A stretch of 64,000 nucleotides of DNA from an uncultured Planctomycetales bacterium (GTDB lineage Bacteria > Omnitrophota > Gorgyraeia > Zapsychrales > JAHFFX01), in contig CAZTCI010000003.1 in assembly GCA_964612665.1 (NCBI GenBank), forward strand, positions 969 to 64,968. The letters run 5' to 3'. How positions within the stretch are numbered: position 1 is the first letter of the stretch; the number at the start of each line of letters is the position of its first letter. Below are positions 1 to 18,340 of the stretch, piece after piece. A model generated the notes under the pieces. That model searched no databases. It had not been told where the DNA came from and was given only the letters and a program-made list of their open reading frames with translations. The position numbers were made by a program, and so were the translations under genes.

Positions 1-3000
1 CCCATGTCGTTCCAATTCACGCCGGCATCGCTCATCACGTCGACATCTGACCAGTTGATTCCTGTATTGGACAAATCATTCAAGCTCGACCAATTAATCC
101 CAATCATACTCATTGCGTTTAAATCAGACCAATTCACACCAATACTACTCATGATATTCAAATCAGACCAATTGACACCGGCATCGCTCATGATATCGAT
201 ATCTATCCAGTTAATGCCAGCATCCGTCAAGATATCAAGATCCGACCAATTAACACCAGAATCGGAGAGAATATCCAGATCCGACCAATTCACGCCGACA
301 TTACTCAAGATATTAATGTCCGACCAATTAATTCCCGACGTTGTCATCTCATTAATATTACTCCAGTTGACACCAATAGTTGAAAGCACAGTAATGTCAT
401 TCCAGTTGACACCAGCATCACTTAAGATATCAATATCAAGCCAATTAACACCGGCGTCGCTCATAATATCGATATCCAGCCAGTTGATACCAGCGTCAGA
501 TAAAGTATCTAGATCAGTCCAATTGACACCAGCGTTGCTTAGAATATTGATGTCACCCCAGTTAATTCCAGCGTCGCTCAAAATATCAAGATCAGCCCAA
601 TTGACACCAGTCGTACTTAAGACATTGATATCTGTCCAATTAATTCCCGACGAGGTAAGCGCGCCTAAATCTTCCCAGTTGACACCCGATTGATTTAAAA
701 CGCTTAAATCGATCCAGTTAATACCGGAGCTGGTTAGATCATTTAAGTTAGACCAATTCACGCCGTTGTTGGTTAAAACCGACAGATCATTCCAATTAAC
801 ACCAGAATCACTCAAAATATCCAGATCCGCCCAATTCACTCCGGCAGTACTTAAAACCGTAATGTCATTCCAGTTGATGCCGGCATCACTCAAAATATCT
901 AAATCCGACCAGTTGATGCCAGCGTCGGAAAGAATGTCCATATCGATCCAATTGATTCCAGCATCGCTTAGGACATCGATATCAGCCCAGTTCACACCAG
1001 CATCACTTAAAATATCCAGATCAGCCCAGTTCACACCGGTGGTACTTAAAACACCTACATCAGTCCAATTGATTCCTGTCGTCGTTAAAGCGCCAAGATC
1101 ATTCCAGTTGATGCCGGTCGCGCTTAAAACACTAACATCGTTCCAATTAATTCCGCTGGTTGTCATTTCATTTAGATTCGACCAATTAACACCGCTCGTG
1201 CTAATCACATCGAGATCGTTCCAATTGACGCCAGTGTCGCTTAAAATATCCAGATCCGCCCAATTCACGCCGGCGTCACTTAAGATGTCGATATCAAGCC
1301 AATTAATGCCAGCGTCGGACAAAACATCCAAGTCCGCCCAATTCACACCGGCGTTACTTAAAATATTAACGTCATTCCAATTAATGCCAGCGTCACTCAA
1401 AACATCAATGTCCGCCCAATTCACGCCGGCGTTAGTCAAGGTATTAATATCAGACCAGTTAATTCCGGCATCACTCATGATATCCAAATCAGCCCAGTTG
1501 ACGCCGGCCGCCGTGAAGACACTAAGATCACTCCAATTGACACCCGTTGTCGACAACGACCCTAAATCATTCCAGTTGACACCAACGTTAGTTAAAATAT
1601 TAATGTCCGACCAGTTAATCCCGGAAGTGGTCATATCATTAATGTTCGTCCAATTCACACCACTTGTTGTCAGCACCGTGATATCATTCCAATTCAATCC
1701 AGCGTCGGAAAGAATATCCAGATCCGCCCAGTTGACGCCCGCGTCGCTTAAGATATCAATATCAAGCCAGTTGATTCCTGCATCTGACAACACATCCATA
1801 TCCGCCCAGTTGACGCCGGCGTCGCTTAAGATATCGAGATCAGCCCAGTTAATTCCGGCATCACTTAAAATATCAAGGTCAGCCCAGTTCACACCGGTTG
1901 TGCTTAAAACTGTTAAATCACTCCAGTTGATGCCCGCGTCACTCAAAACATCGAGATCCGCCCAGTTGAGTCCGGCCGTCGATAAAACACCGACATCATT
2001 CCAATTGATTCCCGTCGTCGATAAAGCGGCGAAATCATTCCAATTAACACCCGCATCACTTAAGATATCAACATCCGACCAATTAATGCCGACGGTTGAA
2101 AGCTCACTGATATTGTTCCAATTAATTCCGGTGGTTGAAATGACGCCTATATCAGACCAATTCAAACCCGTATCACTCATGATATCCAAATCCGACCAGT
2201 TAATGCCGGCGTCACTCAAAATATCCAAGTCCGTCCAATTAATGCCGGCATCACTTAAAATATCAAGATCCGCCCAATTCACACCCGTCTGACTTAAAAC
2301 ATCAATATCCGACCAATTAAGACCTGCGTTTGAAAGCGAGGCTAAGTCACTCCAATTCGTTCCGATATTACTTAAGACATTCATATCCGACCAATTAATT
2401 CCTGTCGTCGTTAAAACAGTCAAATCAATCCAATTCACTCCTGCGTCGGATAAAATATCGATATCCAACCAATTGATGCCGGCACCAGACATGTCATTTA
2501 AATTCGCCCAGTTGACACCGCTATCGCTCATCACGTCGATATCGGTCCAGTTGATCCCTGCGTCTGAGAGAACGTCAATATCCAGCCAGTTGATGCCGGC
2601 ATCGCTTAAGATATCCAAATCAGCCCAATTAATTCCGGTTGTGCTGATCACACCAAAATCATTCCAGTTAATTCCCGTGTTGCTTAAAACATTAAGATCT
2701 GACCAGTTTAAGCCACCGGTTGTCATGTCACTGATACTTGTCCAGTTAACACCGGTCGTGCTTAACACCGTCAGATCATTCCAATTTAATCCGGCGTCAC
2801 TCATCGCATCCAAATCCGCCCAATTCACGCCCGCGTTACTTAAAACATTAACATCCAGCCAATTAATCCCCACATCGCTTAAAATATCCAGATCCGCCCA
2901 ATTCACACCCGCATCACTTAAAATATCAATATCCACCCAGTTGATTCCAGCGTCTGAAAGAATATCTAAATCTGACCAATTAATTCCGGCATCGCTTAGG

Positions 3001-6000
3001 ATGTCCAAGTCCGCCCAATTCACACCGGTATTTGTTAAAACAGTCAAGTCATTCCAATTAATTCCAGCGTTGCTTAAAATCGTCATGTCATACCAGTTAA
3101 TTCCCGTTGTCGTTAAAGTTCCAATATCACTCCAATTAATACCCGTGACACTTAAGGCGCTCAAATCATTCCAATTCACTCCAGCATCACTTAAGATATC
3201 AACGTCAGCCCAGTTTAGACCTGCTGTCGTCATTTCATTAATGTTGCTCCAATTGACACCGATATTTGATAAAACACCTAAATCACTCCAGTTGATTCCA
3301 GTTGTGCTAAGAGAAGACCAATCAGCCCAGTTGATTCCGGCATCGCTTAAAATATCCAGGTCACTCCAGTTGATTCCAGCGTCGGAAATAATATCCAGAT
3401 CCGTCCAATTGATCCCGGCATCACTTAAGATATCCAGATCAGCCCAATTAATTCCAGCATCGCTTAGAATGTCCAAGTCCGCCCAATTCACACCGGCGTC
3501 ACTTAAAATATCGACATCCGACCAATTAATTCCCGCCGTTGATAACGCCCCGAAATCATTCCAATTAACACCCGAAGCACTTAAAACGCCGACATCTGTC
3601 CAGTTGATTCCGGATGTGCTCATCTCATCGATGTTCGACCAATTAACGCCCGTCGCTGATAAAACCGTTAAATCATTCCAGTTGACGCCGGTCGTACTCA
3701 AAACCGTCAAATCAGACCAATTGACACCCGCATCGCTTAAAATATCAAGATCAGCCCAATTAATGCCAGCGTCAGAAAGAATATCTAAATCCGCCCAGTT
3801 GACACCCGTATTACTTAAGACATTAATATCATTCCAATTGATACCAGCGTCAGAAAGAATATCTAAATCCGCCCAGTTCACGCCCGCATCACTTAAGATA
3901 TCGATATCAACCCAGTTGATTCCCGCGTCAGACAAAATATCCAAATCAGACCAATTCACGCCAGCGCTGCTCATTACATTAATATCTGACCAATTCAGTC
4001 CAACGGTGCTAAATACCGTTAGGTCCGCCCAGTTCACACCTGAATCACTTAATATATCAACATCCGCCCAATTGATGCCGGCAACGGTCATTTCGTTGAT
4101 GTTCGTCCAGTTAACGCCGACATTGGACATGACGGTCAAATCACTCCAATTAATACTGGAACTGCTCAACACCGTCAGATCCGTCCAATTTACACCTGCA
4201 TCACTTAAAATATCCATATCCAACCAATTAATACCAGCGTCGGAAAGGATATCCAAGTCCGCCCAATTCACACCTGCATCACTCAAAATATCCAAGTCCG
4301 CCCAGTTAATGCCGGCATCGCTTAAAACATCCATGTCCGCCCAATTCACACCTGCGTCACTCAATACATCGAGATCTGACCAATTGATTCCAGAAGTTGA
4401 CAAAGCACCGATATCAGCCCAATTAACACCCGTTGCGCTAATGACATCAATATCCATCCAGTTGATTCCGGATGTTGTCAAATCATTAAGACTTGACCAA
4501 TTGACGCCCGTCGTAGTTAGCACCGATAAATCATTCCAGTTAACACCGGTGTCGCTCATCACATCAATGTCGAGCCAGTTCACGCCCGCGTCACTCAAGA
4601 TATCAATATCAGCCCAATTAATTCCCGCATCAGAAAGAATATCCAAGTCTGCCCAATTCACGCCTGCGTTACTTAAAACAGTGAAATCATTCCAATTAAT
4701 TCCGGCATCACTTAAGATATCGAGATCCACCCAGTTGACACCAGCATTGCTTAGCGTATTAATATCGGCCCAATTAACTCCGGCATCAGAAAGAATATCC
4801 AAGTCCGCCCAATTCACGCCCGCATCACTTAAAATATCCATGTCCGTCCAGTTAATGCCAGCGGTCGTTAAAGCGCCAACATCGGCCCAGTTAACGCCGC
4901 TTGTTGCGATAACATTAATGTCGGTCCAGTTAATTCCTGTCGTCGATAAAGCACCAATATCGCTCCAGTTCACACCCGCATCACTTAAAATATCTAAGTC
5001 AGCCCAATTGATTCCAGCGTCGGATAAAACATCGAGATCCGCCCAATTCACGCCTGCATTACTTAAGACATTCATGTCCGTCCAGTTAATCCCGGCATCC
5101 GAAAGGATATCTAAATCAGCCCAATTGACGCCTGCGTCACTTAAAACGTCGATATCAAGCCAATTAATTCCAGCATCGCTTAAAATATCTAAATCGCTCC
5201 AATTAATTCCAGCATCGCTTAAAATATCCAAATCACTCCAATTGACACCAGACGTTGTCAAAGCGCCGACATCATTCCAATTAATACCAGCATCGCTGAG
5301 GATATCAACGTCTGACCAATTGATGCCTGAAGCTGTCATATCATTGATATTTGTCCAGTTGACACCAATTGTTGACATCACATTCATGTCTGACCAGTTG
5401 ATCCCCGCCGTGGTTAGTGTATCCACATCCAACCAATTAACGCCTGCGTCAGTCATGATATCTAGATCCGCCCAATTGATTCCCGCCGTTCCCAACGTAT
5501 TAAAATCAGTCCAATTAATTCCCGCATCACTTAAAGTGTCCAAGTCCGTCCAGTTAATGCCATCAGTACTGAGAATGTCGACATCCGTCCAGTTGATCCC
5601 ACTTAAAGTCATCACGGCCATATCATTCCAGTTAAGTCCGGCAACCGACATAACCGTTAAGTCACCCCAGTTGACACCCGCGTTAGAAAGTGTGGCCAAA
5701 TCATCCCAATTAATAGTTGAATCCCAGTTGACACCCGCCCCACTCATATAGGCAATGTCATACCAATTAACACCAGCGGTACTTAAAAATTGCAAATTGT
5801 CCCAGTTAATGTTGGCATCGCTTAAAATATCGAGATCACTCCAGTTGACGCCTGCATCACTCAAAATATCAAGGTCTGCCCAATTGACACCCGCGTCGCT
5901 TAAGATATCAACATCGGCCCAATTAACACCGGCATCACTCATCACATCAATATCCAGCCAATTTATTCCCGACGTCGATAAACTAAAAAGATCTGTCCAG

Positions 6001-7121
6001 TTAATGCCAGCATCGCTCAAAATATCAATGTCATACCAATTAATTCCGGCCTTACTAACGGATTCGATATCATCCCAATTAACATTAGCCATACTATCCG
6101 TGACATTTTTAATACTGGACACATTGGATTTTAAAACATCAACATCTGCCCAGTTGATTGTGTCAGTCGCGGCTTTGATGTCGCTGATGTTTAACCAATT
6201 GATCGTATCGGTTGAAGATTTAATGTCAGTGACGTTGGTCCAATTAATAGTATCGGTTTTACCGCGGATTGTGGCGAGTTGAGCATCTTGAAGAGAATAC
6301 GTAACAGTTCCCGTAAAGGTAAGCGTGTTATAGGTGATCGTGACAACACCAATGTAGGATTCATTACGGCTGGAAGGAATCCAACCATTATTACTCTTAA
6401 ACCAATCAGCGGAGGCATCGACAGTGAGCGATAAGGCGCTACAGTTTCCGCCGCAACCCGTGTCTAACGTCGTCCCATTAGATTTATAAATGGCCACGGT
6501 ACAAGTTTCAGTCCCACCCAAATCAACAATGCGGCCATCCGCTTCAAGCCAAGCCACTAAATCAATTTCATCACCGCTGGCCCCATAGGTCACCTTTGAC
6601 TGAACAGTTAAAGGAACAATTCTGAAACTGTTTGAAGTCCCTGTATACGTTACTGAACTGATGGTCGTTGAAGCCTTCAGAGTGTAAAGCAATCCGGGCT
6701 TGTTAATCTTTAGTCCCTTGCCAGAAAAGTCCGCCACCCCACTCGTCATAGTCATACTAGTTGTACCACCGAGCGTACTGCTTCCACCAGAATCGTTACT
6801 AATGGAAAGCGTAACCGTGGCGCTGCTATTATTAACAGTGTTGCCGTTAATGTCTTTTAAAGTAAGGACAGGTTGGGGACTAAAAACAGTATTGGGATAA
6901 GCGTCGGGAACAGTTCCGGTAAAACTTAAATAGGAAGGATCTCCAGCCCCTGCTTGGCCGGATGAAGAACTGGCAGAGGAAGAACCATCGTATCCCCCGC
7001 CAGTGTATTGGGCATAAACTGAGGAAAAGAAAGAACCGCTCAAGAGGAGTACTAATATAAGAGTACACTCTACCCCTCTGCGGACAAAATTCGCTCTACG
7101 TTCCGTTATGTTTTCGGTCAT
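1..7121 (-). CDS. giant secreted repeat protein, partial (C-terminus beyond window start). It has a signal peptide and a ~270-aa Thr/Ser/Gly-rich N-terminal domain, then at least 160 tandem 13-aa repeats (I/V)NWxD(L/V)DILSDAG.
   Basis: Manual minus-strand translation, codon low coordinate = 0 mod 3. ATG at 7119-7121 follows an in-frame TAA at 7143-7145. N-terminus reads MTENITERRANFVRRGVECTLILVLLLSGSFFSSVYA-Q, a classic signal peptide. I translated about 1.7 kb (7121 down to ~5400) with no stop. The plus-strand frame stays in one phase across 4..6282 with only three stops, so there are no indels and the minus frame is preserved throughout. Neighbouring genes are all minus-strand. The ORF track omits it because it lacks an in-window stop. 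Confidence 0.8.
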   Translation of the reverse strand, partial: MTENITERRANFVRRGVECTLILVLLLSGSFFSSVYAQYTGGGYDGSSSASSSSGQAGAGDPSYLSFTGTVPDAYPNTVFSPQPVLTLKDINGNTVNNSSATVTLSISNDSGGSSTLGGTTSMTMTSGVADFSGKGLKINKPGLLYTLKASTTISSVTYTGTSNSFRIVPLTVQSKVTYGASGDEIDLVAWLEADGRIVDLGGTETCTVAIYKSNGTTLDTGCGGNCSALSLTVDASADWFKSNNGWIPSSRNESYIGVVTITYNTLTFTGTVTYSLQDAQLATIRGKTDTINWTNVTDIKSSTDTINWLNISDIKAATDTINWADVDVLKSNVSSIKNVTDSMANVNWDDIESVSKAGINWYDIDILSDAGINWTDLFSLSTSGINWLDIDVMSDAGVNWADVDILSDAGVNWADLDILSDAGVNWSDLDILSDANINWDNLQFLSTAGVNWYDIAYMSGAGVNWDSTINWDDLATLSNAGVNWGDLTVMSVAGLNWNDMAVMTLSGINWTDVDILSTDGINWTDLDTLSDAGINWTDFNTLGTAGINWADLDIMTDAGVNWLDVDTLTTAGINWSDMNVMSTIGVNWTNINDMTASGINWSDVDILSDAGINWNDVGALTTSGVNWSDLDILSDAGINWSDLDILSDAGINWLDIDVLSDAGVNWADLDILSDAGINWTDMNVLSNAGVNWADLDVLSDAGINWADLDILSDAGVNWSDIGALSTTGINWTDINVIATSGVNWADVGALTTAGINWTDMDILSDAGVNWADLDILSDAGVNWADINTLSNAGVNWVDLDILSDAGINWNDFTVLSNAGVNWADLDILSDAGINWADIDILSDAGVNWLDIDVMSDTGVNWNDLSVLTTTGVNWSSLNDLTTSGINWMDIDVISATGVNWADIGALSTSGINWSDLDVLSDAGVNWADMDVLSDAGINWADLDILSDAGVNWADLDILSDAGINWLDMDILSDAGVNWTDLTVLSSSSINWSDLTVMSNVGVNWTNINEMTVAGINWADVDILSDSGVNWADLTVFSTVGLNWSDINVMSSAGVNWSDLDILSDAGINWVDIDILSDAGVNWADLDILSDAGINWNDINVLSNTGVNWADLDILSDAGINWADLDILSDAGVNWSDLTVLSTTGVNWNDLTVLSATGVNWSNIDEMSTSGINWTDVGVLSASGVNWNDFGALSTAGINWSDVDILSDAGVNWADLDILSDAGINWADLDILSDAGINWTDLDIISDAGINWSDLDILSDAGINWADWSSLSTTGINWSDLGVLSNIGVNWSNINEMTTAGLNWADVDILSDAGVNWNDLSALSVTGINWSDIGTLTTTGINWYDMTILSNAGINWNDLTVLTNTGVNWADLDILSDAGINWSDLDILSDAGINWVDIDILSDAGVNWADLDILSDVGINWLDVNVLSNAGVNWADLDAMSDAGLNWNDLTVLSTTGVNWTSISDMTTGGLNWSDLNVLSNTGINWNDFGVISTTGINWADLDILSDAGINWLDIDVLSDAGINWTDIDVMSDSGVNWANLNDMSGAGINWLDIDILSDAGVNWIDLTVLTTTGINWSDMNVLSNIGTNWSDLASLSNAGLNWSDIDVLSQTGVNWADLDILSDAGINWTDLDILSDAGINWSDLDIMSDTGLNWSDIGVISTTGINWNNISELSTVGINWSDVDILSDAGVNWNDFAALSTTGINWNDVGVLSTAGLNWADLDVLSDAGINWSDLTVLSTTGVNWADLDILSDAGINWADLDILSDAGVNWADMDVLSDAGINWLDIDILSDAGVNWADLDILSDAGLNWNDITVLTTSGVNWTNINDMTTSGINWSDINILTNVGVNWNDLGSLSTTGVNWSDLSVFTAAGVNWADLDIMSDAGINWSDINTLTNAGVNWADIDVLSDAGINWNDVNILSNAGVNWADLDVLSDAGINWLDIDILSDAGVNWADLDILSDTGVNWNDLDVISTSGVNWSNLNEMTTSGINWNDVSVLSATGINWNDLGALTTTGINWTDVGVLSTTGVNWADLDILSDAGVNWADIDVLSDAGINWIDMDILSDAGINWSDLDILSDAGINWNDITVLSTAGVNWADLDILSDSGVNWNDLSVLTNNGVNWSNLNDLTSSGINWIDLSVLNQSGVNWEDLGALTSSGINWTDINVLSTTGVNWADLDILSDAGINWGDINILSNAGVNWTDLDTLSDAGINWLDIDIMSDAGVNWLDIDILSDAGVNWNDITVLSTIGVNWSNINEMTTSGINWSDINILSNVGVNWSDLDILSDSGVNWSDLDILTDAGINWIDIDIMSDAGVNWSDLNIMSSIGVNWSDLNAMSMIGINWSSLNDLSNTGINWSDVDVMSDAGVNWNDM

Positions 7122-7241
7122 TCCAGGGATCAACTGGACTGGTTATTTTTTGAAGATATTCTGACTGCCTGATGAGTGACAGATGCCACAGAATCTTCAA
7201 AAACTCAAAAATAATTTATAAAAACGCCTAAAAATCTACCG

Positions 7242-8840
7242 CTATGAACCGTCGTAAGTCCTAACACCGCGGCCGCCATAATTATTAGCTCTTGCCGTAT
7301 CCGTATTAGCGGCCTTGCTGCGATCAGAAATTCTTAAAGCTGTATTTGCAGAATCCCAGGCCCCGCCTTTTTCACCGGCGCCAGTCGCGCCCGTAACACC
7401 ATGAGACGCTGTACCATCGCCCGAGACCCAACCTGAGGTATTAGCATTACCTTCATAAGAGGCCACGACATCCACGGTTCCATCCCCATGCCCGCCGGTG
7501 TACGCAATTCCCGTCGAGTTACCAATCGTAACCACCCGTTCCCACAAATCGCCTGACATTTGCATAACTCCATAATAACTGGCCCCGGCCGCTTCCCTGG
7601 TGCTGCTGGCTGTTGCAAAAATGCCCGCGCGTAACGGTCCGAAAACATATTCACTTCCTAAAAAGTCATCGCCGCGGCTAAACGTTGTCGAATTATAATT
7701 GGCATTGGCACTGTTTGTTAAAACCGTTTCTAATCCCAACTCGGCGCTTCCTGAAATTGTTACGGCCGCCGTAAGATTAGTGCTCCCCCACGCATACTCA
7801 CCGGAGACCGCGCTCAAAGGACCACGGCAAATTTTTTCATACTCAAGTTCTGTCATAGGTCGAAGTCCGACCCAATCTAAATACGCCGATAAATCCATCC
7901 AACTGATATAACTTACCGGCCGGTCACTGCGAGATGTACTCGCGACACCAGCAGCTTGAGAAATACTATTGCGCTTGACAACGCTGTCGGAATTTTTGCC
8001 ACCGTTTGTGTTACTCGTAATATCGCGGTTCGTTTGAGCACTGCTGCCGATATTATTAATGAAGTCAACCCACTGACCTTCAGTAATCGGATATTTCATA
8101 CAATAAAAAGCGGCATAACCTTTAGGGAAAGCCGCAGGGATTGTAAATTCCGCACCCGTCGAGGATTCACCAGCATTACTTCCGGAAACATAATAATATC
8201 CATCCGAAACCAATTGATTCACATTGATAGCACCTTCACTTGATATATACCAGGGATCTGTGTCGCCGGATCCTTGTTTAAGACTTCCTGTCGAAGAAGT
8301 ATCACCCGCGTAAAATGGTGACGTGGGAATATAAACCATTTCTATGCCAATCACTTTAACCGAGATGGTGTCCGTGTCAGCAGCGCCAGCAGCTGCATAA
8401 TCAAGCTTCAGACGAACGTTATGCGTTGAGACTGTCCCCGAGCCCGTTGATTTCCGTCGAATAAAAGCCCCAACTTTGTCGGAAGGAACATAAATTTCTA
8501 AATCGTTACTGGCGCTGGTTCCAGGAGAAGTTCCAGCGGGATCAGTTCCAGCATTTTTCATGTTTCCATGGACAGGCGTGCCGCTGTTGATTGTAACTTT
8601 TAATACAACCCAAACAGCGTCATGATTGGTAGGAGTTCGCCAGGAATTATCCCAGCTCAAATCAAATTGAACAATCGCTGTATCTGCCGAAGAATCGCGA
8701 TCCTGCAAAGAGACATTCGAAATGACCAAATTATTTGCCCTCGCCGGTAAAACAACTACTGTCAAAAAAGCGTTAAACACGAAAAATAAAATGCCGAATA
8801 ATTTTTTGTTTTTTGTTTCGCGCATGCCAAACCATTTCAA
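7242..8840 (-). CDS. secreted FGE-sulfatase/SUMF1/EgtB-family domain protein (GldJ-like fold)
   Basis: N-terminal signal peptide. Motifs match the formylglycine-generating-enzyme domain: YCMKYPITEGQWVDFIN, RPVSYISWMDLSAYLDWVGLRPMTELEYEKICRG, SGDLWERV, and the C-terminal GGAW...RISDRS...GGRGVR. Confidence 0.65.
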   Translation of the reverse strand: MKWFGMRETKNKKLFGILFFVFNAFLTVVVLPARANNLVISNVSLQDRDSSADTAIVQFDLSWDNSWRTPTNHDAVWVVLKVTINSGTPVHGNMKNAGTDPAGTSPGTSASNDLEIYVPSDKVGAFIRRKSTGSGTVSTHNVRLKLDYAAAGAADTDTISVKVIGIEMVYIPTSPFYAGDTSSTGSLKQGSGDTDPWYISSEGAINVNQLVSDGYYYVSGSNAGESSTGAEFTIPAAFPKGYAAFYCMKYPITEGQWVDFINNIGSSAQTNRDITSNTNGGKNSDSVVKRNSISQAAGVASTSRSDRPVSYISWMDLSAYLDWVGLRPMTELEYEKICRGPLSAVSGEYAWGSTNLTAAVTISGSAELGLETVLTNSANANYNSTTFSRGDDFLGSEYVFGPLRAGIFATASSTREAAGASYYGVMQMSGDLWERVVTIGNSTGIAYTGGHGDGTVDVVASYEGNANTSGWVSGDGTASHGVTGATGAGEKGGAWDSANTALRISDRSKAANTDTARANNYGGRGVRTYDGS

Positions 8841-8887
8841 ACTTACGAATAATTCACGAACACGTTCAATTAATAAAAAGATCCCGA

Positions 8888-9871
8888 TTAATAATCGTAT
8901 TTCGCGTTCTTCAACTGCTCTTTATCCTCAGCCTTGTCCAAAGGAGAGTCAATGCTGGATTTTAATTCCATTCTGGCTTTGTTAATTTTATCTTTTACAA
9001 AAGCGGCATCGTCGGCACTGGGATTCAAATATAAATACTGCTGATAATGTTTGAGCGCTGTTTTTTGATCACTTAAATATTCACCGCTGACAAAAGCGAG
9101 ATTATAGTGACTGGCAGCATCGAAGGGCATAATCTCAACGGCTTGCGAATATTCCCATGCGGCCTTTTGATAATCGCCTTGCTGGAAAAAAACATTCCCC
9201 ATGTTGTAATGAACTTTCGCGGAATCTTTTTTCAGACGATCATTTTCATTATTTAACTCTGAAACTTTAGAAACAACGCCTTGAACTTCTTCAGGATTAT
9301 TGACATCGATTGTGGTGGCTGCTTCCGCCGGGGCTTTCATCGCTTCCATTTCTTTGTGCCATTTCTCTTCCAAAGTTAATTGCTCTTCCAATTTCTTATA
9401 TTTTGCCTGCCATTCAGCATCTTTTTGGTCTACGGCTGCTTGAAGTTTTTTGATTTGCGCGTCTTGATCATCTTTAGTTCTGGCGATATCTTCCAGTTTT
9501 CGACCCAAGTCTTCTTTTTCGGATAAGGCCGTTGTTAGACGGTTCGCGTCGACCGCTTTCTGACCGTTTAACTGCTTTAAGTCAGAAGCCATTTTTTGAT
9601 TTTCCTTCATCAGCTGTTCATTTTCTTCAACAGCATTCTTCAGACTTTGATTAATTCTGATGATTTGCTGTTCTTTAAAAGAGACATCCAATCCTCCCGA
9701 CATGCCTTCATCCATAACGGCCTGGTCGAGATCAACCTGGTTTTGGACCGCCCCTTGAGATGTCTCAGCGGCATGACCTAAGCCGGCGGCGAAAAACAAG
9801 CCGCAAAACCCTAACCATCCCAGAATTGGGACGATTGGCATTTTTGAATATCGTGAGGATTTTTTAAACAT
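8888..9871 (-). CDS. secreted coiled-coil / TPR-repeat protein
   Basis: Signal peptide. Central heptad-rich, Q/K/E-rich segment. C-terminal TPR-like repeats (GNVFFQQGDYQKAAWEYSQAVEI..., YNLAFV..., ALKHYQQYLYLNP). Confidence 0.6.
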   Translation of the reverse strand: MFKKSSRYSKMPIVPILGWLGFCGLFFAAGLGHAAETSQGAVQNQVDLDQAVMDEGMSGGLDVSFKEQQIIRINQSLKNAVEENEQLMKENQKMASDLKQLNGQKAVDANRLTTALSEKEDLGRKLEDIARTKDDQDAQIKKLQAAVDQKDAEWQAKYKKLEEQLTLEEKWHKEMEAMKAPAEAATTIDVNNPEEVQGVVSKVSELNNENDRLKKDSAKVHYNMGNVFFQQGDYQKAAWEYSQAVEIMPFDAASHYNLAFVSGEYLSDQKTALKHYQQYLYLNPSADDAAFVKDKINKARMELKSSIDSPLDKAEDKEQLKNAKYDY

Positions 9872-9942
9872 ACCCTTTCTCCTTTTTCTTGAATTAAGCT
9901 TCTGTGAACCTTCGGATGTAAAAGAGCACCTCAGGTTATCTA

Positions 9943-11565
9943 TTATTTTGGTTCAACACTCGCTTCTTTATAATCTTTAAAAGGTTTAACTGATCCCTTT
10001 AGTGAATTGTAATCATCTTTAGACGTGACGACATGCGGTGTTATAAAAATAACAATTTCCGTGCTGGCAATATTATCACTCACACGGCTGAAAAATTTTC
10101 CAACCCAAGGCACATCCATAAGGTAAGGCAGACCTTTTTTGGTATGAACCTTATCATCTTTCTTAAGACCACCCATAATAATAGTCATGCCGTCTTTGAC
10201 CATGACGGTTGTTTCAACTTCAGTTTTATTTGTTTGTGGAATGCCGCCGCCTTTGGATTGGATTTTATCTACGACCGTAGAGATCTCTGGTTTTAAGCGC
10301 ATAATAACCACACCATCATCATTAATAATAGGCGTAACGGCCAGCTTCAACCCAACATCAACGAAACGCACATCTTCACTAGTAATAGCATTGTCACCCG
10401 TACCTGAGGTTGTTGAGATAATATAAGGAATCGTGTCACCAATATGAATCCTTGCTTCCTCATTATTAGTGACCATGATTTGAGGATTGGAAAGAATTTT
10501 TGTATCGCTTACCTGCTTCAAAGCCCGAGCCGCCACCGAAAAGTGATCAGCATTGACTTGACCGATACCAATTTTACCAAAAGCATTACCTAAATTATCC
10601 GACGTTGATAACTTTGGATTATTCAAATAAAGATTTTGAAAACTAATTTTGCGCAGCTGCGGGTCAGGACTATCCTTAAAATCCAAATTCCAATCAATCC
10701 CTAAATCAAAAGTCGGCTTAAAAGTCACTTGTAAAATGCGGGCCTCAATCATCACTTCTTTCGTCGGAGCATCAAAACCCTTGATCATCGTTTTAATTTC
10801 TTCCAGACGACTAGGCAAAGCGCGCACAATCAACTGATTACTGCGTTCATCGGCCATAATAGAGCCAACCCCGCTCGCATCGATGCGCGAACGCAATTTT
10901 TCACCAACGACCTCAGCCTTGGCATATTCCATAGTAAATATATAGGTATTCAAAGGTGTTTCCAAAGTTTTCAAGGCATCCTGCATCTTGGCCAAAGCTT
11001 CCGGCGTATCAATTAAAACAAGCGAGCCGGTATCTTCATCAATAATAATCTTGCCAATAGAACTCTTAATATTATCCAGAGCCGCCAAAATGTTGGCTGG
11101 CTTCGCATAATTCAACTGCAAAATCCTGACTTCAGTTTTATCGCCAAAGATGCGGCCATAGGTTGCTTCGTATTCACTAGCATTCATCACCTGCACAATG
11201 TCACCGGGCAAAATTTTATAAGCTAAATGATTCGAAATGACCGCAATGTCTAAAGCATCTTTGATAGCGACACTTTTCAAAAGCAGGGTAACGCGCCCTT
11301 CCACCTTGCTGCTGGTGACCACGTTAAATTCACCTTTGGTCGCAAGAAACTTAATCACATCGACAATATTCATGTCCCTGATATCCAGTGTAATCTTGCG
11401 CTGCAGACGCTTATCCAAAGGTTCCTGCGGTTCGTTAATCTCGATATATTTGGCTTCATCGACAGGGGCTTCGGCTTTTACTCTCGTCGGGGGCGGCCCC
11501 AAAAGAATAAACAAACCAATCATGAACAAAAATACCCTGCGGGTTTTATTTTTGATCGATTTCAT
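9943..11565 (-). CDS. secretin (PilQ/GspD family outer-membrane channel)
   Basis: N-terminal signal. N0/N1-like domains. Secretin core motifs: LSNPQIMVTNNEEARIHIGDTIPY, VDVGLKLAVTPIINDDGVVIMRLKPEIS, GGLKKD...KGLPYLMDVPWVGKFF...TEIVIFITPHVV. Confidence 0.8.
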   Translation of the reverse strand: MKSIKNKTRRVFLFMIGLFILLGPPPTRVKAEAPVDEAKYIEINEPQEPLDKRLQRKITLDIRDMNIVDVIKFLATKGEFNVVTSSKVEGRVTLLLKSVAIKDALDIAVISNHLAYKILPGDIVQVMNASEYEATYGRIFGDKTEVRILQLNYAKPANILAALDNIKSSIGKIIIDEDTGSLVLIDTPEALAKMQDALKTLETPLNTYIFTMEYAKAEVVGEKLRSRIDASGVGSIMADERSNQLIVRALPSRLEEIKTMIKGFDAPTKEVMIEARILQVTFKPTFDLGIDWNLDFKDSPDPQLRKISFQNLYLNNPKLSTSDNLGNAFGKIGIGQVNADHFSVAARALKQVSDTKILSNPQIMVTNNEEARIHIGDTIPYIISTTSGTGDNAITSEDVRFVDVGLKLAVTPIINDDGVVIMRLKPEISTVVDKIQSKGGGIPQTNKTEVETTVMVKDGMTIIMGGLKKDDKVHTKKGLPYLMDVPWVGKFFSRVSDNIASTEIVIFITPHVVTSKDDYNSLKGSVKPFKDYKEASVEPK

Positions 11566-12247
11566 ATTTTATGGTGATCTCCTCATCTTGGTTCGTTAAA
11601 ACCGCTCGATCCGTATAAATAGTTTGGACGGTCCAATTTTTTATCTTTTCGCCTTGATGCGCAAAGTAAGTAATATTACTTTCTTTATCCTCAACCATGA
11701 CAGCCGCCGATTCCGGCGTACTTAACCAGGAAATGCCGACTAATTTTAAATTTTGAGCGGGATTATTAACTTTTTGCGAAACCGCTGGGACGATGCCCTG
11801 CTCATTGATCTTGCGTTCAAACGGCTGAAAAATATTGCGGGCATCAATCAAACTCAAATAATACGACAGCTGTCTCACCGGAGGAACAAGGTTTGCATTC
11901 ACTTTACCGCGTGGTCCTGATTCAATATCTAATTCGGTGCCGTGGTTGACTAAATTGAAACCATTAAAAAATTCAACCAAAAAAATGAGAACAACGGCAG
12001 CCACCGCCAAGATCAGTAATTGGTTGAGTTCTTTAAGTCCAAACTTAAATGAAGGATTAGTTGATGAGGAGACTTGCTCAGAAAAAACTGATTGCAGAAA
12101 AGAAGGCATGTTTGGCGTCACGCTTTTACCGCGGACTGCTTCCGCCATTTGACGGGCGACATCAGATTGAGAAGCATCTTTAGGGTCGCCGCTGGCTGCG
12201 GACGCGGGGAGTATTTTTTTGGAATCTTCTGCGCTCTCTGGGGCCAT
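11546..12247 (-). CDS. PilP/GspC-like secretin-associated membrane protein
   Basis: Single TM helix (LLILAVAAVVLIFLVEFF). C-terminal beta-domain resembles the PilP homology region (LKLVGISWLST..AAVMVEDKESNITYFAHQGEKIKNWTVQTIYTDRAVL). Lies immediately upstream of the secretin with overlapping ends. Confidence 0.45.
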   Translation of the reverse strand: MAPESAEDSKKILPASAASGDPKDASQSDVARQMAEAVRGKSVTPNMPSFLQSVFSEQVSSSTNPSFKFGLKELNQLLILAVAAVVLIFLVEFFNGFNLVNHGTELDIESGPRGKVNANLVPPVRQLSYYLSLIDARNIFQPFERKINEQGIVPAVSQKVNNPAQNLKLVGISWLSTPESAAVMVEDKESNITYFAHQGEKIKNWTVQTIYTDRAVLTNQDEEITIKYEIDQK

Positions 12248-12424
12248 ATTAACGTGTATGCTTCACGAACATACTTACAGGTTTATACGTTCATTACTCG
12301 AAAAGATCGACGCTGCTGCATACTTCCACAGAAGAATTATCAAAAGATGAGATTTGTTTCTACTTAAAAATCCGCTTTTATCGTCGGACAATACGCTTTT
12401 TTATTGAACAGTGTGATTATCCTA

Positions 12425-13453
12425 TCATAAAGCCTTTTGCTTGCAATGATTTATTCGTTTTTTTTTACAACTTTTTTTAGGAAACAAAAGATTTAAAATC
12501 CCCGAGGAGAAACCAGCACTTCGCGCGCATGCGCGCAAGCTCATAACTTGACTTAAATAAATAATTTCTTTAATTTCCTTTGTTATTTTTAACGCGTAAT
12601 AGAATTCAATTAGAAATAAAATAATGAGTGGTATGAGAGTCAACCCAAAAATTATTTTTGACTTTAAAATGAGCGACACCAACAGACATAAACTAAATAG
12701 TAAAGCTAAAGGAATCTCAAGAATGTCTTTCCAGAAAGTATAATCATCGCCCAAACTCATCTGCGGATGGTCCACGTACATTTTTATCCGCCAAAAACCA
12801 TGTCTCCACTGTTCTTTAAGATATTTCATGAGACGCGTTGTATGAAAATGTTCGACGCGGGACTCTTTTTCAAAATAAATCTTATGCCCGGCCTTAATAA
12901 TTTTGTAACTAAGATCATTATCCTCGCCACTGGGATAACGGTAAGTCGTATCAAACCCTCCCACTTCTTTAAAAATTTTTTTCCGCACACCGAAATTATA
13001 ACTGCCGAAAACTTTTGGATAGACTGGCATAAGTTCACGGTGGCGGAAAATAATCTCGTCGTGAATAACACGCGCTAAAATGAATTCAGGATTGGCAATG
13101 CCATAGCTTCCTGCGACAACCGCGACAGTTGGATCCTTAAAATGTGCCGCGCCTTTGGCAATCCAATCAGACTGCGGGACACAATCGGAGTCCGTAAAAA
13201 AAATAAATGCGCCAGCGGCCAAAGACGCCCCTTGATTGCGCGCCACGGCTGGGCCTTGATTGGATTGATAAAAATATTTGACTTGAGGAAACTGTTTGAG
13301 AATGGTCGCCGTTGCGTCAGTTGATCCATCATCGACGACAATAACCTCATAAGGGTGGGAATAATTTTGATTTGAAATCGCTTTTAACGTTTGGGCAATT
13401 GTTTTGGCACCGTTAAAAACGGCGACAACAACGCTGACAGACGGATTATCCAT
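12425..13453 (-). CDS. family 2 glycosyltransferase with C-terminal transmembrane domain
   Basis: VSVVVAVFNGAKTIAQTLKAISNQNYSHPYEVIVVDDGSTDAT plus a DxD-like DSD motif. Start set at the internal MDNPSVSVV codon; the ORF-track N-terminal extension looks spurious. Confidence 0.75.
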   Translation of the reverse strand: MDNPSVSVVVAVFNGAKTIAQTLKAISNQNYSHPYEVIVVDDGSTDATATILKQFPQVKYFYQSNQGPAVARNQGASLAAGAFIFFTDSDCVPQSDWIAKGAAHFKDPTVAVVAGSYGIANPEFILARVIHDEIIFRHRELMPVYPKVFGSYNFGVRKKIFKEVGGFDTTYRYPSGEDNDLSYKIIKAGHKIYFEKESRVEHFHTTRLMKYLKEQWRHGFWRIKMYVDHPQMSLGDDYTFWKDILEIPLALLFSLCLLVSLILKSKIIFGLTLIPLIILFLIEFYYALKITKEIKEIIYLSQVMSLRACARSAGFSSGILNLLFPKKSCKKKRINHCKQKAL

Positions 13454-14123
13454 GCTTTCGACAAATTGTGTAGAGCAGCATTCCAAAAGTCGAACCGACA
13501 ATTTGGTCCGGCGAAAAAGCCAAGGGCAGCGTATTAATTCCGCCCTGGGCAATCACGTCAAATCCGGCGTGCTTGTGCAAATGAATAAGATCTTTGAGAA
13601 TAAACGGCGTCTCTTCAATCCCTGGCATAAAAAAAGGCCGAATCAATTCCCAAGGCGACCACCGATTAGGAACAACAGTCACGATAACTCCATCAGATGA
13701 TAACACTCCGGATAAATTTTTTAAAATGTTTGCTTGGTCTTCAAAGGGAAAATGTTCTAAAAGTCCGTCGGTAAAAATGAGATCGAATTTTTTATTGACC
13801 GCTGACAAATTCGCCGACAATAGATCATGCTTTAGAATTTCGGTTCGCCCGGAGGTCAAACGCTTGGCGATATCAAGCGCGCCTTGGGAATAATCGAGCG
13901 AAACCGTTGTCATGCCCGCGTCACAAAAATAACGCGAAAAAAAACCGCTGCCGCATCCGGCATCAAGCGCTTTTTTTCCGGACACGGCATACGGTTTTAA
14001 AATTTTCATAATCCTTTTTTTGGACCAGCTGATTTGAGTAAACGCTTCAGTTGAATCTTTTTTCCAAAAATGATCCCAGTCCCCGGACTGAGGTGTTTGA
14101 ATTGTTTTATTTAGAACTGTCAT
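13446..14123 (-). CDS. class I SAM-dependent methyltransferase
   Basis: Motif I LDAGCGSGFFSRYF, followed by the acidic motif II LDYS. Confidence 0.75.
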   Translation of the reverse strand: MTVLNKTIQTPQSGDWDHFWKKDSTEAFTQISWSKKRIMKILKPYAVSGKKALDAGCGSGFFSRYFCDAGMTTVSLDYSQGALDIAKRLTSGRTEILKHDLLSANLSAVNKKFDLIFTDGLLEHFPFEDQANILKNLSGVLSSDGVIVTVVPNRWSPWELIRPFFMPGIEETPFILKDLIHLHKHAGFDVIAQGGINTLPLAFSPDQIVGSTFGMLLYTICRKHG

Positions 14124-14481
14124 CGTTAAAATTTTTTAGATGTTTGGTTAATCTCTGTAGTTCAAATTCCAGTCGGCCGATTTTTTGCGCCATCATGTCG
14201 TTGCGGTTATTTTGCTGGCATAAAAATATGGTCAAAAATAAACTCAAAAAAACAAAAAACGCCAACAAAACGAAAAAAATAAAATTACTCGGCACTTCAA
14301 AACCGAAGTAGCGCGACATTTTAAAAAGCACTTCATGAAAAATCACAAAAAACAATCCTGCAACACCAATAAGAAGCCAGGCAAACGCGTACTTAAAAGT
14401 CAGCTTTTCTCGACGGATTAATTCAACAACCGTCAAGAGCATGCCTAGCGTAATAATGAGCGCCAAGACTTTAATCGGCAT
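14107..14481 (-). CDS. DUF2304-like small membrane protein (GtrA-like partner of the GT2)
   Basis: ~120 aa with 3-4 TM helices and REKLTFKYAFAWLLIG. The typical GT2-adjacent arrangement. Confidence 0.6.
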   Translation of the reverse strand: MPIKVLALIITLGMLLTVVELIRREKLTFKYAFAWLLIGVAGLFFVIFHEVLFKMSRYFGFEVPSNFIFFVLLAFFVFLSLFLTIFLCQQNNRNDMMAQKIGRLEFELQRLTKHLKNFNDDSSK

Positions 14482-15319
14482 TCAGGGAAGTTCTTTCTTT
14501 TTTAATCATGTGAAGTAAAATCGCGAAGGTCACTTTGACCATGTAATAAAGTGTGCGCAGATAGCGGATAGAACTGTGCCCGTGCTGGCGCTTGCGCATT
14601 TCAACCGGCATTTCCTGAACGCGCGCGCGCAAAGACCGCGCCACCATAATTGCTTCGGGTTCTGGAAAGTCATGCGGATAATATTGCGCGAAGGCTTTAA
14701 TTATCTTTCCATTAAAAGCGCGGAAACCTGAAGTCGGATCCGTGACTTTATATCTCGTCAAGAAACTAATCAGCCAAGCAAAAAAATGAATACCAATCCG
14801 CCGCACAAACGACGATTGATAACCTAAATACGGCGGCAAAAACCGGCTGCCGATTGTCATATCCGCTTGACCACGGATGACGGGATCAATCAATTGACTC
14901 AAATAACGAATATCATGCTGACCATCGCCATCCACTTGAACGGCGAGCGTAAACCCTTTATCGACGGCAAATTGAAATCCAGTTTGAACCGCGCCCCCTA
15001 TTCCCAAATTAAAAGGCAAAGACACAACAAACGCTCCAGCGCGATAGGCTTCTTCAGCTGTTTGATCATTAGAACCATCATTAATAACCAAAATCGTAAT
15101 TGGCAGCGGTGAATTTTTTAATTCTTCAATGGTCTTTTGAATGTTGCCGCTTTCGTTGTAAGCGGGAACTATGACGAGAATTTTGTGGGTCACGGGTTTC
15201 GCAGAATTTGAAGACGGCATCACATCAGCTTGAACTACTATATTAGATTGATTGGAGTTCATCTTAACTAGCCAAGTGTCAGTGCCAGAAAATTCGTTGG
15301 TGTTGGTAACACCTAACAC
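14471..15319 (-). CDS. family 2 glycosyltransferase (polyprenyl-phosphate sugar transferase, DPM1/GtrB-like)
   Basis: ILVIVPAYNESGNIQKTIEEL...ILVINDGSNDQTAEEA...VQVDGDGQHD, then a C-terminal membrane anchor. Exact start codon is uncertain; there are 3 in-frame Met candidates. Confidence 0.75.
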   Translation of the reverse strand: MLGVTNTNEFSGTDTWLVKMNSNQSNIVVQADVMPSSNSAKPVTHKILVIVPAYNESGNIQKTIEELKNSPLPITILVINDGSNDQTAEEAYRAGAFVVSLPFNLGIGGAVQTGFQFAVDKGFTLAVQVDGDGQHDIRYLSQLIDPVIRGQADMTIGSRFLPPYLGYQSSFVRRIGIHFFAWLISFLTRYKVTDPTSGFRAFNGKIIKAFAQYYPHDFPEPEAIMVARSLRARVQEMPVEMRKRQHGHSSIRYLRTLYYMVKVTFAILLHMIKKERTSLNAD

Positions 15320-15343: not shown

Positions 15344-15715
15344 TTAATTCTTCACAAACCCACTTTCCTGTAACTTTTTAAGCAAACTAAAATCAATAAG
15401 TTTCTGATTCAACAGAATAATCATGCCACCTTTAATACGCGGTTCTCGACGGATAGTGACCTTAACGGGTTGGCCGCGTTTTTTTGCGGCGGAACGTTCA
15501 ATGCGTTCCAGCATCTTAGAAGGACACTGGTTGGCCACAACAACAACCACTTCCGGTAACTGCGGATCAAATTCTGAGGCAAACATGACTTCAAAACGGT
15601 GCACGGCGGATTCCATTAAAGAATGGTTGAGTAAAAAACCCAGAATGAAAACGATAATACCGATGACAATGATTTGAAATAGGAAAATTTGAAGGAGGGC
15701 GGTGGTTAAGGTCAT
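15344..15715 (-). CDS. hypothetical membrane protein
   Basis: N-terminal TM helix. No recognisable motifs. Stop/start-coupled to the downstream and upstream genes. Confidence 0.4.
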   Translation of the reverse strand: MTLTTALLQIFLFQIIVIGIIVFILGFLLNHSLMESAVHRFEVMFASEFDPQLPEVVVVVANQCPSKMLERIERSAAKKRGQPVKVTIRREPRIKGGMIILLNQKLIDFSLLKKLQESGFVKN

Positions 15716-17016
15716 TGGACTTGAGCTTGGGCTTTCTGTAAATTTTCTTTTTCGGAGGCAAGGTAAAGAGCGGCGGCGTTCACGAGATCAACATTTTTAT
15801 CTTCTTCTCTTCGATCCGGAATCAATCCGCCGAAACTAAAGACACTTCCATCCGGAAAATGACCGCGGGCGGTTACGAGTAAAAGCATGGATTGGTCGTC
15901 AAAATTAAACATGCTTTTTAACATCACCTGACCGGCGGTGTTCGCTCCCATCAAAATCGCCCGGCCGCGTTTTTGCAGGACGCCCGAAAAAAGTTCGGAG
16001 GCGCTCCCGCTTTCTTTATTGACGAGAATGACAAGCGGGCCATGATAACGAAAGCGTTCTGGAATAAAAGGAACATCTAACGGAGATTGGACTTCTCCTT
16101 TTCTTTGAAAATAAGCGAATTCTTCCTTCGGCGGTAAAAAGAAAGCGGAGATTTCGCGTGCCGCTAAAGGCGGGCCGCCGGGATTGCCGCGCAAATCCAA
16201 AATCAGCCCAGAATTTTCTTGTTTTTGGATCCAGACGAGATAACGCAGCATATCATCAGATGTTTTTTGATTAAAGCTGCGGATTTGCAGGCAATAAATG
16301 CCGGGAACTCTAACCGGGACCATAAAAACGGTTTGTTTAAAGTATTCTTGGCTGACGACCTCAATTTTTTTCGGATGATTGTCACCGAAAGTCAAATAAT
16401 CCAGCCTGACTTTAGAATCGACCAAAGGATTTAATAAGTCTTGAACTTGGTCTTCTTTCAAAGATTTACTGGGCCGGCCATCAATGGCTAAAATTATGTC
16501 CTTAACCCTTAAACCCTGAACATAAGCATCTGAGCGGGGTTCAATCATTGTAACAACATAACCAATCGGCAAGAGTTTGCCTTCGATGCCGAGATCGACT
16601 TTTTTACCGAGGACTTTTTTCTCAAATTTTTCGGCGAATTTAGGCGGGATGAATTCAGAAAAGATATCTTCTTTGGATTTAAGGTCCTGAATCATGTAGG
16701 CGGCGCCCCGCCATTTCACATAATTGTCAGACTGGCCTTCTTTTCTTAACTCTGTATAAAGCCGTTTTTTAAATCGCTGAATGAATTGACTGTAAATCCG
16801 CGCATCAACCGGAAGATAATAATTTTCTTCCATGGTCTTGTACACTTTGTCGAAAAACTGAAGGAAAGGTTTGTAATCTTGGTCGCGGGGAGATTTCATA
16901 GACTTGGCGGACAATTTTTCCGTCGCTGAGGCGGCGGATATACAAAACGTAAAGAGCATTATCGCAAGAAAACCCGCGGCCAATCGTGACGGCAATTTAA
17001 CTGTGACTAAATACAT
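15712..17016 (-). CDS. ctpA: C-terminal processing peptidase (S41 family, PDZ-containing)
   Basis: LILDLRGNPGGPPLAAREISAFF and PLVILVNKESGSASELFSGVLQ. Signal peptide MYLVTVKLPSRLAAGFLAIMLFTFCISAASA. Start moved to 17016 because the longer track ORF runs through a terminator hairpin. Confidence 0.75.
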   Translation of the reverse strand: MYLVTVKLPSRLAAGFLAIMLFTFCISAASATEKLSAKSMKSPRDQDYKPFLQFFDKVYKTMEENYYLPVDARIYSQFIQRFKKRLYTELRKEGQSDNYVKWRGAAYMIQDLKSKEDIFSEFIPPKFAEKFEKKVLGKKVDLGIEGKLLPIGYVVTMIEPRSDAYVQGLRVKDIILAIDGRPSKSLKEDQVQDLLNPLVDSKVRLDYLTFGDNHPKKIEVVSQEYFKQTVFMVPVRVPGIYCLQIRSFNQKTSDDMLRYLVWIQKQENSGLILDLRGNPGGPPLAAREISAFFLPPKEEFAYFQRKGEVQSPLDVPFIPERFRYHGPLVILVNKESGSASELFSGVLQKRGRAILMGANTAGQVMLKSMFNFDDQSMLLLVTARGHFPDGSVFSFGGLIPDRREEDKNVDLVNAAALYLASEKENLQKAQAQVQ

Positions 17017-17060
17017 AGTAGGGGCATTATAACACAGCAATTTTAATTGCATACAAAAGG

Positions 17061-17135
17061 ATAAAAAATGCACGCCGGGCGCTTGAGCTGTTTCGCCCGA
17101 ACTTTTACGCCCGGCGAAACAGCTCAAGCGCCCCC
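17061..17135 (-). terminator. rho-independent terminator after the 17229..17609 gene
   Basis: A ~22-bp GC-rich inverted repeat (cgggcgcttgagctgtttcgcc / ggcgaaacagctcaagcgcccg), followed on the minus strand by a TTTTTTAT run. Confidence 0.6.
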
Positions 17136-18225: not shown

Positions 18226-18340
18226 AACTGTTCTCTCAATTTTATTGTTGGAGTGAGTTGGCTTTGAAATTAAGTTTTGACTGCCGTTATTATAATGTTA
18301 CCAGTTAGGCTGTCAATAAAAGACCGACATTTTTTAAACT

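Follow-up and report, generated by a model that had tools for sequence, protein, structure and literature searches.

How does a bacterium bring a repeat protein of thousands of residues to its surface, and do the genes beside the one that encodes it do this work? The question is raised by a 64,000-nucleotide stretch of an Omnitrophota genome (contig CAZTCI010000003.1, positions 969 to 64,968; "the window" denotes this whole stretch throughout), in which the 5′ part of a giant repeat-protein gene lies downstream of a small gene set that includes a secretin. Omnitrophota are uncultured, ultra-small bacteria, and secretins are the outer-membrane gates of type II and type III secretion systems (T2SS, T3SS), type IV pili and filamentous phages. 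A sequence-only reading of the window had proposed that the upstream genes form a self-contained system that secretes and possibly glycosylates the giant protein. These genes were said to encode a protein with the fold of formylglycine-generating enzyme (FGE), a tetratricopeptide-repeat (TPR) protein, a secretin, its PilP-like partner, and a block of glycosyltransferases (GTs) and a methyltransferase. We found every one of these elements where that reading had placed it, all in the same orientation as the giant open reading frame (ORF). The core of the proposed system is conserved among Omnitrophota as a gene cluster, and export through the secretin is plausible; the glycosylation part found no support. 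Overall, we consider it an evenly balanced proposition that the minimal secretin module of this cluster is the dedicated export route of the giant repeat protein.

Conservation of the secretin module and the giant gene

All relevant genes of the locus are co-directional on the minus strand. In reading order, a bitopic inner-membrane protein that weakly resembles GspC and PilP (11546..12247, 233 aa) is encoded first, and its gene overlaps by 20 bp that of a 540-aa secretin with a signal peptide (9943..11565). A secreted coiled-coil and TPR protein follows (8888..9871, 327 aa), then a secreted, non-catalytic FGE-fold protein (7242..8825, 527 aa) and the giant gene itself (1..7121), which runs off the window. 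Upstream of the GspC-like gene lies a 177-bp intergenic gap (12248..12424), the site at which many relatives carry a gene for an ExeA/GspA-like ATPase of the AAA_22 family, as judged from synteny and tblastn. The genes of the locus overlap or are separated by short gaps, and no intergenic terminator-like site was found from 17127 to 7121.

Two scans examined whether these genes occur together elsewhere. Anchored on the secretin, the first covered 185,579 species genomes, one per species, and yielded 67 loci whose ORFs were scored with the window's proteins; all 67 come from Omnitrophota metagenome-assembled genomes (MAGs). The GspC-like gene was present in 59/62 loci, the TPR gene in 49/51, and a giant ORF of 13-residue repeats lay downstream in 31/33. 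The two loci lacking the giant ORF (L050 and L054) carry solo paralogues of the secretin. The second scan searched metagenomes with an alignment of the giant protein's N-terminus and gave 32 loci; once redundancy was removed and loci showing 6 kb or more upstream were counted, the secretin module stood immediately upstream of the giant gene in 18 of 19. Related loci extend 10 kb to either side of the anchor, and the region downstream of the giant gene is visible in one of them (L020).

The surroundings of the module vary. Locus L073 reads SmpB-DnaJ-LOG, AAA_22, GspC-like, secretin, TPR, a small ORF and the giant gene, with neither the GT block nor an FGE gene, and in L079, L088, L089, L091 and L098 an intact module has other housekeeping genes upstream. 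Given that this order is kept across unrelated neighbourhoods, the unit that travels can be written as (AAA_22)–GspC-like–secretin–TPR–(FGE, zero to two copies)–giant gene. Thus, within the 15-kb block that the sequence-only reading had treated as one system, the GspC-like, secretin, TPR and giant genes are co-conserved, and the GT block keeps with them in one subclade only.

These data also bear on whether there is any functional link at all. In a slowly rearranging, streamlined genome, the secretin and the giant gene could be independent and their order merely inherited. Indeed, the synteny of gcvP and lplA in the close clade equals that of the module, and in one lineage the giant gene and the secretin are apart. 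Because housekeeping genes are equally syntenic there, the close clade alone cannot separate function from inheritance. Between lineages, however, the flanks are wholly different and the adjacency of module and giant gene is kept; the genes also overlap or lie close together on a single strand. We regard the lack of any functional link as very improbable.

The giant protein and the proteins encoded with it

The giant ORF is open from 7142 to 1, with the Met at 7121 as its likely start, and encodes at least 2,373 aa. A signal peptide (residues 1–37, ending SSVYA before QYTGG) is followed by a non-repeat region that extends to about residue 290 (about 250 aa), and then by 160 near-perfect units of G-[IV]-N-W-x-D-[LIV]-[DN]-[IV]-L-S-[DT]-A, whose spacing is exactly 13 in 155/159 cases. 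The protein is rich in Asp (15%) and Asn (12%) as well as Ser and Thr, contains almost no Lys, Arg, Glu, Pro, Cys or His, and matches no Pfam family. At the DNA level the repeats recur every 39 and 78 nt with only 61–85% matching, indicating that they are old and selected at the protein level and do not represent an assembly artefact. A Lysostaphin_N hit within the repeat region of protein P0121 (22 bits against a cutoff of 60) was discarded as a chance match of periodicity. The giant protein had also been described as beta-solenoid-like. An AlphaFold2 model of 16 repeats is all-beta, with two short strands per unit, at low confidence (pLDDT 57), and a Foldseek search with it returned nothing below E 0.5. 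Given both results, we make no fold claim for the repeats; the all-beta model hints at a beta-solenoid, which stays hypothetical.

The start of the mature protein is common to all giant orthologues: directly after the signal peptide (7011–7121 in the window), the final Ala is followed by Q-[YF]-[ST]-G-G, often continuing x-Y-D-G-S-S. This N-terminus could be a recognition or anchoring motif. Downstream of the module, L005 encodes a homologue of 6,919 aa and L073 one of 582+16,204 aa; the L073 protein has an N-terminus 29% identical to that of the window's protein, and all of its repeat spacings (254/254) equal 13. A much shorter homologue in L020 is complete at 1,324 aa: a signal peptide and a Laminin_G_3 domain precede about 42 repeats, and the C-terminus is helical and rich in Ser/Thr. 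The giant protein of L028 likewise bears the Laminin_G_3 lectin domain at its N-terminus. Full lengths were taken from gene tables, and the repeat alignment comprises nine non-overlapping fragments.

The giant ORF reaches the end of the locus or contig in 37/39 loci. Since many contigs end inside the gene, public catalogues hold the family mostly as fragments and underestimate both its length and its frequency. Among 1.84 billion representative proteins, 494 match the repeat family at E 1e-3 or better, mostly fragments, and a homology search with the giant N-terminus gave 12 hits, mostly incomplete.

The secretin belongs clearly to its superfamily, with PF00263 at 165 bits (cutoff 27.5, E 1.5e-48) and two copies of PF03958 (82 bits). 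It has N0 and N1-type domains, aligns with the N0-N1 domains and core of XcpQ, and contains neither an AMIN domain nor an S domain. An exact-sequence look-up recovered one Logan contig, of 6.4 kb. The solo paralogues mentioned above are 54–55% identical to it and stand in unrelated contexts (L050, 10004–11629; L054, 5537–7138). L050 and the full locus L033 come from one MAG, and in L054 the second gene downstream of the solo secretin is a PMT_2 (GT-C) gene.

The partner protein consists of an N-terminal cytoplasmic segment, one transmembrane (TM) helix and a C-terminal domain, with no PDZ domain. Its similarity to GspC is sub-threshold (Pfam T2SSC, E 8e-4, 19.7 bits against a cutoff of 27; GspC_delta, E 1.4e-3). 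The L073 orthologue matches GspC_delta at E 3.8e-5, and the sole match of a 34-sequence family profile against the Protein Data Bank (PDB) was the homology region (HR) domain of GspC (7oio), weak at E 0.26. These similarities are consistent with a GspC/PilP HR-like identity, which we assign tentatively.

The TPR protein (TPR_11, E 7.6e-12) has a signal peptide and a coiled coil and is a core member of the unit, as is the GspC-like protein. A lipobox-like motif occurs in 4 of its 81 orthologues, leaving 77 without one; unlike the pilotins PilF, PilW and Tgl, it is therefore not a lipoprotein. Against the Tgl and PilW models it scores 24–26 bits, where the cutoffs are 154–225.

The AAA_22 gene encodes a protein of about 300 aa (length about 296) in relatives including L004, L005 and L073, and is present in 24/57 close loci (about 40%) and 16/17 divergent ones. 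The protein matches PF13401 at E 1e-23, and its best model is the ExeA-related TIGR03015 (184 bits, below the cutoff of 324). No tblastn match to it was found anywhere in the window. The ATPase is ancestral to the module and has been lost here. As the best model describes an XrtA-associated ATPase, PEP-CTERM sorting was considered for the giant protein and rejected, as no such motif is present at the end of the complete L020 protein.

For the gene between TPR and giant genes, the proposed FGE/SUMF1 fold was confirmed. PF03781 matches at E 1e-14 (55 bits, cutoff 23.3), and a confident AlphaFold2 model (pLDDT 92.4, pTM 0.91) combines an N-terminal beta-sandwich with a C-terminal FGE/C-type-lectin-like domain. 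Foldseek aligned it with EgtB, FGE and OvsA (E 5e-8 to 1e-6); for the FGE structures E is about 1e-7 and the TM-score, normalised to the target, about 0.58. Formylglycine-generating enzyme relies on a catalytic, copper-binding cysteine pair. In a 63-sequence alignment of the FGE-like family no Cys is invariant or even 90%-conserved, so that such a pair is missing, and the protein lacks a DinB domain; a catalytic role as FGE or EgtB was rejected on these grounds. The family shares the C-terminal motif GGSWxDxxxxLRISDR.

Co-occurrence of FGE-like and 13-mer-repeat proteins, which the sequence-only reading had suggested looking for, is frequent, yet the FGE-like protein is dispensable. The window has one copy and the majority of its relatives two; among secretin-anchored loci 26 have two and five have none, and the giant-anchored metagenome loci contain zero (eight loci), one (nine) or two (five). 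Its exact database match is P0001, and contig look-ups by exact sequence, with both the 532-aa ORF and P0001, found none. Homologues are labelled Candidatus Omnitrophota by their sources, and four of the five looked up lie in this locus. The fifth, a full-length paralogue (52% identical), is flanked by NuoF-like and NuoG-like genes within a NiFe-hydrogenase/hyp operon (L002, 10001–11599), on a 1.17 Mb JGI contig (Ga0265297_10000002) that also bears the full locus L078. Of the loci lacking the gene, L020 has three ORFs of about 190 aa between the TPR and giant genes (13007–14830), and L092 has Fic-like and IS200/RAYT-like transposase genes, judged from sequence, in the same interval (2880–7452).

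The glycan block and other neighbours

Upstream of the gap lies a block of envelope-glycan genes (12425..15319, minus strand), identified by Pfam, NCBIfam and synteny. It encodes a family 2 glycosyltransferase (GT2) with two C-terminal TM helices (12425–13552, start uncertain), an S-adenosylmethionine-dependent methyltransferase (13446–14123), a DUF2304 protein (14107–14481; E 5e-18, 65.7 bits, cutoff 25.5) and a PpgS/DPM1-like GT2 (14471–15319, start uncertain), all on the minus strand. The last has PpgS as its best NCBIfam match, at 110.7 bits and below the equivalog cutoff of 370, and its gene overlaps that of the DUF2304 protein by 11 bp. A PpgS/Rv3632-type pair, that is, a DPM1-like GT2 with an adjacent DUF2304 protein, can accordingly be recognised at the level of domains and architecture only.

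Might this block glycosylate, and perhaps methylate, the giant protein, with a polyprenyl-phosphate-sugar made by the PpgS-like GT2 and DUF2304 protein, the TM-bearing GT2 and the methyltransferase as its means? In its favour, some 50 related species loci share with the window a block that stands directly upstream and points the same way, Ser, Thr and Asn abound in the giant protein, and in L074 genes for sugar and sulfo transfer lie near the giant gene. In the secretin-anchored loci the TM-bearing GT2 is present in 51/54, DUF2304 in 48/51 and the DPM1-like GT2 in 47/49; the methyltransferase, however, is found in only 18/51. Moreover, the S41 peptidase gene (43/45), lplA (42/43) and gcvPB (28/29) are as conserved as the GT block, so that its presence reflects the synteny of a subclade. 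Among ten divergent loci, the TM-bearing GT2 is adjacent in three and absent in seven with at least 2.4 kb more upstream sequence visible; in those seven the genes in its place are unrelated housekeeping genes. The whole block is missing beside the module in L073, L079, L082, L088, L089, L091 and L098. No GT-C or oligosaccharyltransferase was found among the annotated ORFs of the window. Since co-conservation of the block stops at one subclade and the window's annotated ORFs include no periplasmic transferase, the glycosylation claim is unsupported, and we think modification of the giant protein by this block improbable. The GT2, methyltransferase, DUF2304 and GT2 genes are an adjacent envelope-glycan module, linked in the gcvP-lplA-S41 subclade only and outside the unit.

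Two further subclade neighbours follow, again on the minus strand. The gene for a small TM protein (15344–15715), which has an OSCP/ATP-synthase-delta-like C-terminal domain, stands alone between the S41 peptidase and GT2 genes and is kept in many relatives; non-respiratory F-type ATPase genes have been reported to adjoin type IVa pilus (T4aP) clusters in Omnitrophota (Seymour et al., PMC10066038). The next gene encodes an S41 C-terminal-processing peptidase with a PDZ domain (15712–17127). The remainder of the window consists of housekeeping genes, among them lplA, the gcv genes and the dcw cluster.

A perfect sigma-70 consensus (TTGACA, 16 nt, TATAAT) lies at 18316–18289 on the minus strand, 5′ of an EF-hand gene. 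It is possible that this site, a consensus match only, starts a long transcript that runs from the S41 gene through the GT block and secretin module into the giant gene. A second consensus match (11/12) falls within the FGE-like gene, upstream of the giant gene, at 7721–7692. Elsewhere in the window, divergent paralogous genes for AAA_14/DUF4143 ATPases (50592–51779, minus strand; 53896–55047, plus strand) stand on either side of a gene for a 516-aa secreted protein without a Pfam family (52035–53585).

A candidate export route and its relation to known systems

Taken together, the gene content suggests the following route. The giant protein would cross the inner membrane by Sec, as its signal peptide and the conserved Q-[YF]-[ST]-G-G mature N-terminus suggest, and the outer membrane through the dedicated secretin, with the GspC-like adaptor docking on the secretin's N0 domain. 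The TPR protein, together with the ExeA-like ATPase where present, may help the secretin to assemble. Outside the cell, the Asp/Asn-rich repeats would fold into a long all-beta fibre or adhesin, with a LamG lectin domain at the N-terminus in some relatives. The one or two non-catalytic FGE-fold proteins would be optional secreted partners, possibly periplasmic chaperones or fibre binders.

A more specific proposal can be put forward, although we hold it to be doubtful. Here a module of three or four genes, with no pseudopilus, pilus or GspE-type ATPase, would provide a dedicated passage through the outer membrane for a giant protein that Sec exports, 1,300 to about 16,800 aa long and made of as many as about 1,250 repeats, which would be pulled out by its own extracellular folding into a fibre hundreds of nanometres long. 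Ultra-small cells might use such a fibre to reach or hold a host or prey, with the FGE-fold proteins as periplasmic or fibre accessories.

Several points weigh against export by a dedicated secretin. Adjacency of the secretin and the giant gene is no proof of substrate identity, and the repeat fold was predicted at low confidence. The unit encodes neither an energy source nor a pseudopilus; to our knowledge each known secretin system, whether T2SS, T3SS, type IV pilus or filamentous phage, has a dedicated motor, and we know of no precedent among them for transport that lacks both. In L074 and L080 an FGE-like gene accompanies the giant gene with no secretin within 10 kb upstream; what lies upstream there are sugar and sulfo-transfer genes and an ABC exporter. 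The remaining points concern the kinship of the secretin with pili. It scores highest on the PilQ model, members of its subfamily occur solo (L050, L054), and Seymour et al. (PMC10066038) report T4aP clusters for nearly all Omnitrophota and Tad clusters for many of them; the supplements of that paper contain no pilQ or secretin entries.

These last points leave room for a different explanation, in which the module is the outer-membrane part of a T4aP machine (or one like T2SS or MSHA) whose inner-membrane and pilin genes are encoded elsewhere, and the giant protein is a mere neighbour, a pilus adhesin or an ordinary substrate. The four proteins would then be a PilQ-type secretin, a PilP-like adaptor, a TPR factor for assembly and an ATPase of the ExeA/MshM kind. 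The secretin itself speaks on both sides. Its best model is PilQ, with a score not far from the cutoff, but it falls below every NCBIfam family cutoff: 261.3 bits on PilQ (TIGR02515, cutoff 284.35), 237.4 on GspD (351.35) and 182 on MshL (250), with HofQ also scoring; its L073 orthologue reaches 260.9 bits on the PilQ model and is likewise under the cutoff. Against the PDB, it matches XcpQ (E 3.6e-40) and PilQ (E 2e-34). Placement of the N-domains against solved structures, the check that the sequence-only reading had proposed, matched PilQ and GspD equally well.

The surroundings, on the other hand, argue against a pilus machine. The linkage of module and giant gene persists across rearranged neighbourhoods (18/19 and 31/33), which is unexpected for a housekeeping PilQ, and the TPR protein lacks a pilotin lipobox. 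The sequence-only reading had noted a secretin pair without its usual companions, and this proved correct: the annotated ORFs of the window include no pilMNO, pilBTC, gspEFG or pilin genes. Nor do GspE, GspF, GspG-K, pilMNO, pilB/T/C or pilins appear in the gene tables looked up for related loci. A Walker-A motif search for a GspE/PilB-type ATPase was negative in the window and within 10 kb in 99 loci, except for the ABC transporter of L080, so no T2SS or type IV pilus ATPase is encoded nearby. Weighing both sides, we find a pilus or T2SS-like machine encoded elsewhere unlikely, though it is the main competitor to export by a dedicated secretin.

If the dedicated route is real, a conserved minimal secretin module paired with a single giant repeat protein would suggest that secretins are put to one more use, simpler than those known. 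The pairing would also offer a testable route by which uncultured, host-dependent Omnitrophota could display very long surface proteins, and the short, complete L020 homologue (1,324 aa) would be a tractable construct for heterologous work. The comparison across loci further separates true members of the cluster from genes that are merely syntenic, such as those for glycosylation.

How does this locus compare with those already described? The broader theme, secretion loci beside Omnitrophota giant genes, is already published: loci resembling T2SS, type IV pili and Tad systems were found directly upstream of giant genes and read as export or adhesion machinery (West-Roberts et al. 2023, 10.1101/2023.11.21.568195; 10.64898/2026.06.07.730766). 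Those loci comprise more than 10 subunits, including gspD, gspE, gspF, rcpC and a peptidyl-prolyl isomerase (PPIase), whereas the module here has three or four genes and no GspE-family ATPase, platform protein or pilins. The cargo differs as well, the published giants being multi-TM proteins with a SecA domain encoded by genes of more than 25 kb, and the present one a protein of 13-residue repeats with a signal peptide and no Pfam family. Neither preprint mentions FGE-fold partners or a secretin-FGE arrangement, and the arrangement of secretin module and giant gene is not described in this form within the literature searched. These papers and PMC10066038 treat what Omnitrophota giant proteins do, and how they are exported, as open questions.

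Among classical systems, the T2SS offers GspD-GspC together with GspA/ExeA-GspB, and the present unit shares a secretin with N0 and N1 domains, an overlapping bitopic partner whose likeness to the GspC HR domain is weak and, in relatives, an ExeA/GspA-like AAA_22 ATPase. It differs in having no GspE, GspF or GspG-K nearby, in the secretin's score on the GspD model (237 of 351 bits) and in a partner without PDZ; the AAA_22 protein of relatives is also shorter than ExeA and lacks its TM and peptidoglycan-binding parts. Likeness to the T4aP (PilQ-PilP-PilF/Tgl) and MSHA systems lies in PilQ as best model and in the TPR partner, and the four-gene set resembles what we take to be the MshK-L-M-N part of the MSHA operon, its ExeA-like ATPase presumably recalling MshM. 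Unlike those systems, the secretin has no AMIN domain, the TPR protein is no lipoprotein, pilMNO, pilB, pilC, pilT and pilins are absent nearby, and the model scores stay below cutoff.

The FGE-fold protein recalls GldJ, GldK and PorK, which share this fold, are likewise non-catalytic and accompany the genes of an apparatus that secretes large surface adhesins. A type IX secretion system (T9SS) was nevertheless rejected: neither the GldJ nor the GldK model of NCBIfam gave a match at E 0.01 or better, a lipobox occurs in only 2/101 FGE-like proteins, and the window holds no T9SS genes. In contrast to the T9SS and gliding machinery, the FGE-like proteins are thus no lipoproteins, there are no GldL/M/N or SprA genes, and the outer-membrane channel is a secretin. 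The giant protein itself invites comparison with the RTX adhesins of type I secretion systems (T1SS), such as the Marinomonas ice-binding adhesin, which run to thousands of residues and contain short acidic tandem repeats. Predicted all-beta repeats and, in some relatives, a lectin-type end domain add to the likeness. Unlike T1SS adhesins, however, the giant protein carries an N-terminal Sec signal and not a C-terminal T1SS signal, it has no RTX nonapeptides, and its gene adjoins that of a secretin in place of an ABC/MFP/TolC set.

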